Source of the DNA: Eledone cirrhosa
Lineage: Eukaryota
Direction of reading: 5' to 3'
Length of the DNA stretch: 64,000 bases
Assembly (NCBI GenBank): GCA_964016885.1
Contig: OZ024743.1
Location: 264,802,001-264,866,000 of the forward strand
This document shows, in pieces, positions 9,722 through 61,375 of this stretch. The notes below the pieces were generated by a model. It worked only from the letters and a program-made list of their open reading frames with translations, made no database searches and had not been told where the DNA came from. A program made the position numbers and the translations under genes. Position 1 is the stretch's first letter, and the number at the start of each line of letters is the position of its first letter.

Positions 9722-10360
9722 TATACTTTGGGAGAACCATGTTGCAAATAAAAACACACGCACCTGTTGGTTTTCACTTCAACTTATGATAAACTTCCGG
9801 TTGGTTCGATAACCGGAAGGTTGTTTATATATTGTGAAAGCTTTTTCGTTACACATTATGTGACCTCCTCAGGGACTAGGTTTTTATTTTGTATGTCTCT
9901 CCTTTGTTCTGTCCTACACGATTGTTTGTGTTGTGTGTTGTGTTCTTAGTTTGCGCATGCGTTACATCCGTGTGTGTGTGTGTGTGTGTGTTTTATTTAT
10001 GTATGTGTTTATTTATTCGTCACTAGTTGGTTGTTTGTTCTATCTGTGTGTGTCTAATTTGTTTTGTTAGTTTTGTTTTTGTGTGTGTCTGTATGTCTTC
10101 ATTTTGTCCCTTATTACTAGCTGTGATATTGCCATTCCACTCATGATTTCTGTTTAACTTTGATAGGAGTTCGTTTATAAGTGAACATTAGTAAGAAATC
10201 CAGGATGGGAAAACTCATCAGTACTCCATCAACATGCCAAAATAGAACATAGTGGCACATTAAAGAACATAGAGATAAAAATTATATCCACACACAGAAA
10301 AGAAGCAATGCTCAGGCAAATGACAGAGGCAACGGATATAAATGAACTCCAACCAAAATT
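9722..10360 (-). mobile_element. PLE 3' end with inverted 5' segment (GIY-YIG C-terminus on + strand, ~10190-10360)
   Basis: Plus-strand translation SVLHQHAKIEHSGTLKNIEIKII...AMLRQMTEATDINELQPK; minus part matches 42650-43100; HHR-like motif at ~9833-9876 (-). Confidence 0.75.
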
Positions 10361-12339
10361 TATTTCTTTATTTGTATTTATATCCGTTAATTTTGTTTTT
10401 GTTTATAACGGTTTTTTTCCTATAATGCTCAAGATAGGAGCGTCCGTTGAATTCTAGGCCCGTGTTTGACATTCTATATGCTTGTTTGTGTTTTTGATGG
10501 TCGTCCACAGATTTGATGTAATTTTTGTTGTGTTAACAATGATGTGAAGATCAGGCGGTTTGGAGTCTGGCCTTGAGGTGCCATCCCAGATCAGGATTCA
10601 GCTGCCTGGGGAATATTTGTGAACAGGATTAAGGAATAAAAATACACGTACCTGTTGGATTTCACTACAATTTATTAGAAATTTCCAGTTGTTTGGTTGG
10701 TTGGTTCAATAACCGGATGATTGTTTATATATTGTCAAAGCTTAATTTGCACCTCTCCTTTCTTCTGTCGTAAACCATCAAGTGCTTTGACATTTTATAA
10801 ACAACCATCCGGTTATTGAACCAACCAAGCGGAAATTTATAATAAATTGAAATGAAAATCAACAGATGCGTATGAGTTTGTTGGCAGCATGACTCCCAAA
10901 TTATTACAATATGTATATATACATGTGTGTGTGCGTGCGTCTGTGTGTGTATGTGTGTGCCTCTGTGTCTGTGCGCACTTCAAATTAAAGGATAATTGAG
11001 AAGCTTAATCATCTTACATATTATTTGTTATGATACATTCACATAGTGTATAATTGCTATACATTCTTATTCGGTTGAATTTCTTAAACTGTGACAAGTA
11101 TTTCGCATCTCCTTCAAGCGCATAAGACGTTCAGTTCTATTTGTATTTGCCCAGACAGTTGACATATTTTTTTAAACCCATGCAGTGTCGATTTTAACGA
11201 CAGATATAAATTGTTTTGTATAATCTATGGGACATATCTGAAGACGATTCTTCAGACAATTAGTTTTTCGTTTTCTGTAGTTCTACCAAAATCGATAGTT
11301 GGTAAAGCTAAATCAGTGGGACGAAACGAAATCAATGTTATGGAGAAACGGCGGATAATTGTTTACCTAACCTCGTAGGTATGTTTAGACACACACACGC
11401 ACACACATATATATATATTCAAATATTCGAGGTCCGTGGGTCATGCACTGACTGGACAGGACGGTAAATAGGGCAGTCACAAGGCGTAAGTAACTATACT
11501 GTTTCGAAATATAAAGATTGCCGCGTAAGCGTGGAAAATATAGTTCAAGACAACAAACATAGGTACAATAGATACATTAGTTTCACTCCTCTTTCCAATA
11601 TAGAGCGTGAAAATAATAAGACTTTGTGTACCTCTGTTTGTTGTCTCCTTGAATTATACATATATACATATACATGTATATATATATATACACACATATT
11701 CAATGGAAAATTTCTGTCCATATTTTTAAAATAAAATATATATGTTTACGTTCTATCGATATAACCTGATTTGTAAAATACCGTGTATGCGTATATCAAT
11801 ATATAGAAGCATATGCGTACAGCATTATTCGTATTGTTCTGTATATGTGTGCTTCCTGTTTCATCAACCTCACCGTGTGGTTTTAAACCAATGTTCTCAC
11901 CAATGTTTGGTTATTTTATATAGAAAAAGAATTTTTTCAATATTCTGACAGCAATAGAAGAGTGTCCGTTTTCTCCTCAAATTTATTGAAGCCACTTGGA
12001 TGGCATAAGAACTGGAGAAAGGCGAAATTTATAAGACACACTCAATTGATAGCTGATAGTGAAAATATAAAGACATCTTATTATTTATAGCAGATGTTTT
12101 CAATCGATAGTTTTGAAGGAGGAGCTGCGAAGGTTAAAGTAGACAAACTTTTTACCGCCTTTAAAACACTTAAATAGATATTTACAGAGTTATATCTCGG
12201 GAAAATATCGATACGAATGATAGTTGCCTATAGTTTAAAAGCTTTTTTTAAACATATATCAAGAGGTCAAATGTGACTTAGACGCATTCATATATCATTT
12301 CGTAATTATGTATGTATGTGTGCCTGTATGTATGCATGT

Positions 12340-12890
12340 ATGTTTGTTTTCTCTTTCTCTTAATTTCGAGTATATTTTTTTGACCGGCCACCTTCCTGGT
12401 GGCAAGGTTGTAAAAGAAAAGAAATTGTCATCCCTTGAATCGCAAGAATGTTTTGCATATTTTGAAGGTGCCAGCTATCGCAGCCATTTGTAGACTATGA
12501 ATTAGGGAGCTGCGCTTTTTGTCCGCAAATCCAAGTTCGATCATACTTTGTATGTATGTATGTATGCCTGTATGTATGCATGTATGTATGTATGTATGTA
12601 TGTTATATCTCTTTCTCTTAATTTCGAGTATATTTTTTTGACCGGCCACCTTCCTGGTGGCAAGGCTGTAAAAGAAAAGAAATTGTCATCCCTTGAATCG
12701 CAAGAATGTTTTGCAAATTTTGAAGGTGCCAGCTATTGCAGCCATTTGTAGACTATGAATTAGGGAGCTGCGCTTTTTGTCCGCAAATCCAAGTTCAGTC
12801 ATACTTTGGTCCAAGCGGGTTGGTATATAACCCGTAGCTCCAATAATGATGGGTATGAAGCTAATGGTGTATCTTGGATACTGGATTTGT
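12340..12890 (-). mobile_element. Two tandem 5'-truncated 3' ends of an RLE-type non-LTR retrotransposon embedded in (TATG/CATA)n
   Basis: ORF 12686-13024 [13 protein letters not shown]...LGF...LQMAAIAGTFKICKTFL resembles an RLE C-terminus; ~12345-12550 repeats at ~12605-12808; (TATG)n on all sides. Confidence 0.7.
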
Positions 12891-13389
12891 ATGTATGTAT
12901 GTATGTATGTATGTATGTATGTATGTATGTATGTATGTATGTATGTATGTATGTATGTATGTATGCCTGTATGTATGTATGTATGTATGTATGTATGCAT
13001 GTATGTAAGTATATATGTATGCAATTTGTGTGTGTGCTTGTGTGTGTATTGTTCCTGGCTTTAAAATATTAGTTTGATTTCTAATAAATAAATAAAATTT
13101 CATGTTTGAAATTTTGAAAAGAAATGCAAGGAAGTCAGTTTCAGTTTCAGGAAAGGGGGTCTTCATAATTTCGCTCTTCCACATACAGAGTTCATATGCA
13201 ATAGCCACCACCTATTCATGTATATAAGTATATATATATACACACAAACACAGAGAGAGAGAGAGAGAGAGAGAGAGAGAGAAAGAGAGAGGGAGAGAGA
13301 GAGAGAGAGAAAGAGAGAGAGAGAGAGAGAGAGAGAGAGAGAGAGAGAGAGAGAGAGAGAGAGAGAGAGAGAGAAGATATATATATATA

Positions 13390-13532
13390 ATAAGGAGTTG
13401 ACGGACCCAGCATATTTATCAATGCCAGGACCGGTTGTATCTCACCGTACGCAATAGGTAATGTAGGATAGGTTCCCAGAATATACACATAGATATTCAC
13501 TTCAATACAACACACGTAGAACGGGTGCCTAT
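13390..13532 (-). repeat. 3' fragment of the repeat family at 60420-60680 and 61262-61522
   Basis: Reverse complement matches ataggcacccgttt...tgctgggtccgtcaactcctta. Confidence 0.8.
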
Positions 13533-14095
13533 ATATATATATATATATATATATATATATATATTTATATATATATATGTATGTGCAGTGGCGGACTGGC
13601 CAGGTTGCCAGGTCGCACAATGGCAAGTGGGCCCAGGGTGGCCACGGTAGCATTGCAGTTGCCCACAGTAGCATTGGAGGGCTCACTGTATTATTTTAGG
13701 GGCCGATGCTTTGCTTTCAAAAAATATCTTAAATCTAAGAGTAAGAAAAAAATTGTTTAAAAATAAATTAAATGATTAAGCAAAGCATTTGGTCAACCAA
13801 TTCCGCACGGAATTAATAGAAACTAAAATATATGATAGAGCAAATAGCTGGAATCAGTAGTTGTACATTCTACTAAATCTAAGGCTTTGTGTATTCATTC
13901 ATGCATGCAAACATACATATATTGACACACACAAGCATATGTCTATATGAAATTTCGTTTCATTCTTTTCCATTTATCGTTTTCGGTGCGCCCGGCCGAC
14001 TAACTCACTCGATATGCAAATTAGGCTGCTCAGCCGTTAATATGAATAAGCAAAGTATATACTTTCAGACGTTCAATCATGTGGCAAGGAAGTAT

Positions 14096-60130: not shown

Positions 60131-60197
60131 ATATATATATATATATATATATATATATATATATATATATATATATATATATATATATATATATAAT

Positions 60198-60310
60198 ATA
60201 TAGAAAAGGCCTCTGTAGGACTAAAACTGTTTCATTCGGAGAAAATCATCATTTCGTAATGATTTTCTTCGAATGAAACGTTTCTAGTCCTGTAGTAGCC
60301 ATTTCTATAT
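60198..60310. repeat. Imperfect fold-back with a degenerate HHR-like core at the apex
   Basis: atatagaaaaggcctctgtaggactaaaactgtttcattcggagaaaatcat vs atgattttcttcgaatgaaacgtttctagtcctgtagtagccatttctatat. Confidence 0.75.
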
Positions 60311-60422
60311 CAAATATTTATACTCTGCTATGTATTGAGTACCTTACTTTCTGTGGTTACCCCCGATTAAACCCGGAATACATACACACACACACACACA
60401 CATAGATATATATGTATATATA

Positions 60423-60531
60423 CCCGCTGATGAAGCCGGATAAGCCGATTGTGTATTGTTGCATTATATATGCAGACGGATGGTGCAGTGCACCTTAGTG
60501 CTGCATCAGTGCGGCAGAAACTCGATCTGGG
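60423..60531 (+). ncRNA. Candidate hammerhead with greatly extended stem II (family E, copy 1)
   Basis: cccg-CTGATGA-agccg...[insert]...cggca-GAAA-ctcga-TC-tggg. Confidence 0.5.
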
Positions 60532-61265
60532 AACCATTATAGGCACCCGTTTTACGTGTGTTGTGTTGAGGCAAATAACTATGTGTATACTCTGGTAATG
60601 TATCTTACATTGCCCATGGAGTACACTGAGATACAACGGGTACTGACATTGATAAATATGCTGGGTCCATCAACTCATTATTATTATCTCCCAACTAGCG
60701 GACTATTTTGAATAAGTTAAACAATTTTTCACTTTTTTATTGTTTTTTGTTTGTTTGATATGCACTCTATTTTCCTGCTATTAATGTTGTCTCTCACTCT
60801 TTTAATTTGTGAAATATATTGGTTCTCTACGCACACGGCTGACACATTTCAGCTTCTACTATATTGCTCTATAATGGATAATCGCATTTAAAATCCGTTA
60901 ATGGTTCTGGGCACTAGCATTGTTACCATCGCTTTCCTCTAACCATGGGGCTTGGAGACATGTGCCGAATACTACCATTCTATTATACATCAATGTGAAC
61001 TGCTATTTCTAATAGACATCTTTTCACCTCTTAATAATTTGTGTGTGAGACACGTTGGCTGGGTGCTTTTGACGGGAACGAAATGATTGATTGTTTATCT
61101 TCCCGCCGCCACGTAAAATTTGTAAATCGGTGGCTAGTCGAGAGATAGAATCTTTTCGAGTGCCAGTTGCTAATCGCTTTACCGTGTCAGTCGTCACAAA
61201 CAGTCATGACCGGCATGGGCTGGTGTTCGGATTCTGTCGATCGATTGGTTATTGATTAGGCGATA

Positions 61266-61375
61266 CTCGCTGATGAAGCCGCATAAGCCGATTGTGCATT
61301 GTTGCCTAATATATGCAGAGGGATGGTGCAGTGCATCTTAGTGCTGCATCAGTGCGGTAGAAATTCGGGTCCAGG
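61266..61375 (+). ncRNA. Candidate hammerhead with extended stem II (family E, copy 2)
   Basis: ctcg-CTGATGA-agccgca...tgcggta-GAAA-ttcggg-TC-cagg; 61262-61522 is a direct repeat of 60420-60680. Confidence 0.45.

Follow-up and report, generated by a model that had tools for sequence, protein, structure and literature searches.

Hammerhead ribozymes lie in the pseudo-long terminal repeats (pLTRs) of metazoan Penelope-like elements (PLEs), where the published features include helix III palindromes, a base left unpaired on the 5′ side of stem II, the U3-A8 core variant and several families per genome (Cervera and De la Pena 2014, PMC4209133). In that work the monomer of a PLE hammerhead was inactive and dimers were weakly active. 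The hammerheads of PMC7229834 have a U.U mismatch at the base of helix II and cleave better as dimers than as monomers, and PMC6765202 also supports dimer-type hammerheads in the PLE class. Inverted, 5′-truncated copies and a bias to (TA)n are on record for PLEs, with the linker a proposed mediator in Neptune, and Naiads have cores split by 35–50 nt (PMC8557442). We analyzed hammerhead motifs in a 64,000-nt stretch of Eledone cirrhosa DNA (GCA_964016885.1, contig OZ024743.1, positions 264,802,001 to 264,866,000; hereafter the window, numbered from its first letter). It is AT-rich eukaryotic DNA crowded with microsatellites, remnants of LINEs (long interspersed nuclear elements) and inverted duplications. 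An earlier note, made from the sequence alone, had claimed at least six sequence-unrelated hammerhead families here, with the stem III palindromes ctag, ccgg, caattg, tgca, agct and ctcgag; we term them A, B, C, D, E and G. All six were located, along with two more candidates, H and I.

The motifs are type I hammerhead folds, and real. Hammerheads of this type have been published, and their presence in the window is ordinary. What the families have in common marks a single, known class of element and does not reflect convergence among unrelated RNAs. Our preferred reading, to which we give a probability of roughly 85%, is that family B ends a PLE, that A, C, D, E and G are likely truncated ends of PLE-like elements or non-autonomous derivatives, and that all would cut mainly as same-family pairs in one transcript.

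All CTGANGA boxes were listed, and descriptors of increasing looseness were then run over the window; the strict descriptor took a stem II region of up to ~90 nt and permitted the U3-A8 core. It gave 11 matches, not independent of one another (three B copies are nearly identical), versus a mean of 0.9 (maximum 6) in 200 block-wise dinucleotide shuffles. Demanding at least 4 bp in both stems I and II left 8 matches versus 0.19 (maximum 2) in 200 shuffles, and demanding a perfect palindrome left 5 strict matches versus 0 in shuffles. Nine of the 11 strict matches fall into four families (A, B, G and H); the others, at -45293 and -32610, look like chance and were set aside, having a 3-bp stem II, and -32610 sits among LINE remnants. 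With one core change tolerated, shuffled windows yielded 3.8 matches each (30 shuffles), so a lone damaged copy is weak evidence by itself.

That background bears on the idea that several of the six families are chance look-alikes in repeat-rich DNA. Families C, D and E were missed by the strict descriptor and found only with 1–2 changes, and for C and for D there is just one, damaged, copy to go on. Against the idea, conserved cores recur in the several copies of A, B and G, the 44-bp fold-back of C is perfect and has TA at both ends, a second D copy has a canonical box, and the G palindrome was confirmed in other copies. We consider chance resemblance an improbable account.

Full-length copies of the motif number 15 in the window: four each of A and B, three of E, two of G and one each of C and D. 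In six of them, two of A and all four of B, the core is intact, the palindrome is perfect and stems I and II each reach 3 bp or more; most window copies are likely dead. Two A copies, four B copies, two G copies and H match strictly the core of CUGANGA (or its U3-A8 variant), GAAA and UH together with both helices I and II. An extra unpaired base between positions 9 and 10.1 is present in A, C, G and H and absent from B and E. The pair 10.1-11.1, a conserved G10.1-C11.1 in the published class, is G-C in three families here (B, E and G), C-G in C, A-U in A and U-A in H. The earlier note's palindromic stem III is clean for ctag and ccgg, while caattg and tgca each depend on one damaged copy and agct is imperfect. 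Its frequent mismatch at the base of stem II holds as U.U in A, C and H and A.A in G, with none in B or E.

These families resemble the metazoan PLE pLTR hammerheads of PMC4209133 in folding as type I, in having a palindrome in helix III, in the U3-A8 variant and in the multiplicity of families per genome, in some of them also in the base left unpaired 5′ of stem II, and further in occurring mostly as single truncated copies with opposite-strand pairs near each other. The ctag and agct palindromes both appear in Fig. S3 of that paper (rotifer, Drosophila willistoni), as read from its text. Unlike most families there, which have a 2-nt palindrome, those of the window have palindromes of 4–6 nt, as in the Aedes, Drosophila and Saccoglossus variants.

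Family B supplies the link to a coding element. An RT + GIY-YIG open reading frame (ORF; RT, reverse transcriptase) at 47728–49616 (+) begins directly after a (TA)n run and is 5′-truncated and frameshifted; it encodes RT, a C-x4-C-x2-C linker and GIY-YIG with CCHH. The family B hammerhead at 50641–50676 sits in the 3′ repeat of this element, a pLTR at 50604–50810 (+), and (TA)n follows the element end at 50810. The layout is that of Neptune/Nematis, and by domain order family B closes what we assign as a Neptune-type PLE. Twenty-seven relatives of the ORF, at 25–70% identity, mostly carry RT domains and in some cases a GIY-YIG match. The closest (P0001, 70% identity) clears the Pfam GIY-YIG cut-off; the window's own ORF copy gave no Pfam GIY-YIG match. 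Two named relatives of the Penelope-like protein are bivalve-symbiont records. The element is like the Neptune-type endonuclease-bearing (EN+) PLEs of PMC8557442 in having RT, a CX2-5CxxC linker, C-terminal GIY-YIG with CCHH, a 3′ hammerhead, (TA)n ends and inverted 5′-truncated copies; it is unlike them in being 5′-truncated and frameshifted, and its placement in Neptune rather than Nematis is putative.

The other family B copies lie at 14677–14714 (−), in the inverted arm of a fold-back; at 14776–14813 (+), with the element end at 14948 abutting (TA)n; and at 20730–20767 (−), 98% like the copy at 14780 and likewise ending at (TA)n. All four B copies have ccgg, and the family uses the U3-A8 core variant.

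Family A retains its ctag palindrome in four of four copies and an intact core in two. The intact copies are at 14096–14138 (+), which shows a 6-bp stem I and U.U at the stem II base, and 188 nt further on the same strand at 14284–14326 (+). The copies at 59255–59297 (−), in the inverted arm of a fold-back, and at 59804–59846 (+) have one core change each; the latter lies within a head-to-tail unit of ~443 bp (59659–60102) with its own (TA)n inside. The fold comprises a 6-bp stem I, a 4-bp stem II and one pair plus a palindromic tetraloop, and one stem I pair alternates among A-U, G-U and U-G across copies. Carrying its own (TA)n, the A unit may seed microsatellites. By eye, the strand that lies upstream of stem I recurs as its reverse complement at the fold-back junction (59316–59330), as if the RT had switched template across the outer stem.

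A variant of our reading would make non-LTR retrozymes of some families, A foremost: short tandem units able to excise themselves, circularize and use PLE proteins. With the published retrozymes (PMC7229834; bioRxiv 10.64898/2026.07.22.740005) the window shares a short tandem unit and a type I hammerhead, theirs with dimer-enhanced cleavage, and the preprint has retrozymes derived from PLE pLTRs. The stems, tetraloop and ~443-bp unit of family A resemble the axolotl motifs, where U.U at the base of helix II occurs in Amex2 and a palindromic tetraloop in Amex1 (PMC7229834). Family G, too, is arranged as repeat-body-repeat with no PLE ORF. However, tandems in the window are only partial (for A, two intact cores 188 nt apart and the 443-bp spacing), half of the A copies have core changes, and unlike non-LTR retrozymes the window has no long arrays and the A unit holds (TA)n. 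We rate the retrozyme variant as a serious possibility, somewhat short of an even chance.

Family G has a mildly unusual stem II. Its two hammerheads, at 60423–60531 (+) and, 843 nt downstream on the same strand, at 61266–61375 (+), have stem II regions of 83 nt (60434–60516 and 61277–61359), predicted to form a two-hairpin branch above a conserved 4-bp base; this exceeds every row in Fig. S3 of PMC4209133. The first copy has A.A at the stem II base, a 1-nt loss in the palindrome and a 5′-truncated upstream repeat. A 3′ piece without hammerhead lies between TA runs at 13393–13533 (−). The ctcgag palindrome that the earlier note had reconstructed for G is absent from both window copies. Four literal CTCGAG sites in the window (3.6 expected by chance) were rejected as the G palindrome, none being in G and none following GAAA.

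The reconstruction was nevertheless correct, ctcgag being the majority reading in other copies from public runs. Runs X1 and X2 (one sample), X9 and X10 were aligned on 60900–61522 at 80% likeness. Among the differences listed, majority changes fell at 61364 (16 X1 contigs, depth 287/317), 61368 (16 X1 contigs, depth 269/288), 61373 (15 X1 contigs, depth 281/308) and 61267 (105 contigs). The restriction-site associated DNA (RAD) reads begin at just 1–5 places at the palindrome. In all four runs these changes restore ctcgag and a perfect 4-bp stem I in G. After 61516, eleven X1 records run on into (TA)n. Depth dips at 61320–61382, but the window copy is divergent over this stretch, so the dip was not taken as a sign that copies are truncated at the cut. 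A copy of a high-copy repeat resembling a short interspersed nuclear element (SINE) stands directly after the G 3′ end, at 61523.

The remaining families are damaged. Family C is known from one copy, in a piece between two (TA)n runs at 42364–42502 (+) with a fold-back at 42399–42442; the hammerhead-like motif starts at 42438, has caattg, requires a 1-nt shift (an extra base) before stem I and has a weak stem II. Family D has a degenerate hammerhead at 16389–16434 (−) with tgca, two core changes and a 7-pair stem I, and a fold-back pair at 16570–16939 that includes an internally deleted copy with its canonical first box at 16788. A look-alike at 35330–35370 has short words in common with D and was discarded, as it does not align to D.

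All three family E copies are damaged: at 9834–9876 (−) the boxes are intact and stem I is broken, at 42767–42809 (−) stem I has 4 bp and A15.1 is changed, and at 627–669 (+) C3 is changed. The last belongs to the opposite arm of a large inverted duplication (613–9890, arms 88–97% complementary, centre near 5.9 kb). In register, stem III of E forms two pairs, A-U and G-C, around a 2-nt AG loop, so its agct is not a clean palindrome. A fold-back pair at 10638–10912 consists of E pieces that start at the stem III motif and have no core. The limits of the span marked in the earlier note coincide with stem I ends, at 9833–9834 for E and 61375 for G.

Adjacency to (TA)n stood above background, though it is softer than it had appeared and weak for family E. 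A (TA)5 run was found within 200 nt of 14 of 17 motif sites versus 34–42% of background positions, with all four family B sites measured to a run inside the element. TA runs of at least 20 nt occur at 8 of 19 element ends, a count that is partly circular since several ends were placed by the analyst at TA borders; for family E the figure is 0 of 5. Fold-back insertion was seen for A, B, C, D and E but not for G. The four hammerhead-less partial copies examined (starts 10742, 10784, 59326 and 13533) all begin ~-6 to +11 nt from the predicted cut. Such starts could record either cleavage or stalling of RT at the ribozyme, and the two E pieces are maybe one event.

Anatomy and published work on the class both favor dimer-type hammerheads, as the earlier note had proposed. 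Stem III would be too brief to hold within a single copy. Two copies would instead join via the palindrome, the core of one pairing with the cleavage strand of the other through stem III. On topological reasoning the stem I strands would swap as well, the downstream strand of the second copy pairing with the upstream strand of the first, and paired cleavage would release unit-length RNA. Same-strand copy pairs are present in the window for A and G, at the 188- and 843-nt distances given above. Family specificity would then come from the two helices together, a by-product of their being self-complementary and of the families having diverged in sequence.

Helix energies were computed without initiation terms from window pieces, plus the read-majority palindrome for G; they ignore tertiary contacts and use damaged copies for C, D, E and H. 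Stem III homoduplexes were predicted at -5.0 to -15.3 kcal/mol, with no mixed pair better than -5.3 (B-G; next A-B, -4.8). Stem I strands form 3–7 pairs within a family and 0–3 in 41 of 42 mixed combinations, the exception being H with G, at 6. Predicted total exchange energy is -17.6 to -36.5 kcal/mol within families versus -7.4 or weaker between them. Pairing within a family is thus predicted to be much the more stable, and same-family cleavage is predicted, via both helices. The same-family preference put forward in the earlier note is thus upheld as a prediction, and on these modeled energies family-restricted dimer cleavage is likely, as a by-product.

Several observations weigh against this reading. 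Among the matches listed (150 of 164) in an Rfam scan of the window there was no hammerhead, only microsatellite and hairpin noise, and Rfam searches of the family A and family G regions, allowing E values as high as 10, gave no hammerhead match. Covariation in family A is weak and non-significant, 80 of 500 shuffles scoring equally high, and C, D and E fit a hammerhead only by hand fitting. The tie to a PLE ORF exists for one of six families, B; around the remaining families (A, C, D, E, G and H), whose copies are short, tblastn with the 27 relatives detected no PLE remnant of significance, so the PLE origin of these families is inferred from their anatomy. The runs used for G may not be from the window's species (best share of words 0.41). 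As to pairing, C and G, with 3–4 possible stem III pairs, might cleave as monomers, and in one preprint 8 of 9 Xenopus dimer constructs were uncleaved and 1 of 9 was cleaved (bioRxiv 10.64898/2026.07.22.740005).

The earlier note went further, proposing the palindromes as a dedicated dimerization code. In its strongest form this holds that they were selected to shield each family from cross-family cleavage or exploitation. Stem III does differ among all families located, mixed stem III duplexes are predicted to fall 4–15 kcal/mol short of the homoduplexes of A, B, C, D and G, and mixed transcripts are possible, as a distance of 490 nt separates A and B copies on one strand. Yet a self-complementary helix of any kind favors its own kind, and stem I must also swap, an exchange that is itself family-specific and already discriminates. 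The E and H homoduplexes (-5.0 and -5.6 kcal/mol) are predicted to be no stronger than the best mixed duplexes. All-different palindromes are expected by chance (P 0.21–0.83 for 6–7 families drawn from 16–80 palindromes), and A, B, C and G keep C...G beside the core, leaving 2–4 central bases to vary.

Published species, moreover, reuse palindromes. In Fig. S3 of PMC4209133 a helix III palindrome is shared between families in 8 of the 11 species with at least two families (Clonorchis, S. mansoni, Aedes, Ixodes, Lottia, Strongylocentrotus, Latimeria and Xenopus), a count read from the PDF text, where the GAAA column is displaced, and made without the D. virilis pair, of which one has an intron and the other has none; most of the palindromes reused have a length of 2 nt, and the families that share them may be related. 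Two Aedes families there have both stem I and stem III in common. We therefore doubt strongly that the palindromes are a selected code, and find the proposal of a dedicated code unsupported, though a code confined to lineages with long palindromes might exist. In the searchable literature we found no homo- versus hetero-dimer test; Lunse et al. and Arkhipova et al. 2017 may already treat family specificity. Equally doubtful is a bolder version, in which the long (4–6 nt) palindromes together with stem I make up a selected two-key lock in this genome, G is an active hammerhead whose branched 83-nt stem II escapes standard descriptors, and those truncated copies that start ~11 nt or less from the cut record cleavage in vivo.

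Beyond the six families, H at 62178–62247 (−) has an intact core, a 41-nt stem II region and a damaged palindrome. Candidate I, at 16023–16066 (+), has intact boxes, a 5-pair stem I, a weak stem II and a non-palindromic stem III. An A/C-rich piece forms another fold-back, around (CA)n(TA)n, at 19188–20157, with a possible decayed hammerhead near 19645–19690 (+), by eye. A CTGATGA box at 56340–56500 (−) (motif near 56466, likewise by eye) may mark another decayed family: it comes with a stem II, which is short, with GAAA and with a candidate 8-bp stem I that is offset. We sought related loci in metagenome contigs and found no relative there.

Other repeats share the window. A LINE at 24928–30372 (+) has upstream ORFs and an unbroken 1150-aa frame with endonuclease, RT and zf-RVT matches. 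The SINE-like high-copy repeat, of ~200 bp, recurs at 8649–8868, 21695–21887, 55309–55496 and 56097–56316, among other places, and a 93-bp tandem repeat runs for 4.4 copies at 45453–45859. An element end at 46116–46146, where a short GC-rich stretch and CTAG immediately precede (TA)n, recalls a Helitron 3′ end.

On our preferred reading, of truncated PLE-like ends that would cut mainly as same-family pairs, the described class gains about seven further families. Family G suggests that hammerhead counts using short stem II limits are underestimates. The window families also form a natural panel for comparing homo- with hetero-dimers. If a selected code were true after all, it would amount to self/non-self discrimination between transposon families at the RNA level, and would help explain the variability of PLE hammerheads within one genome.

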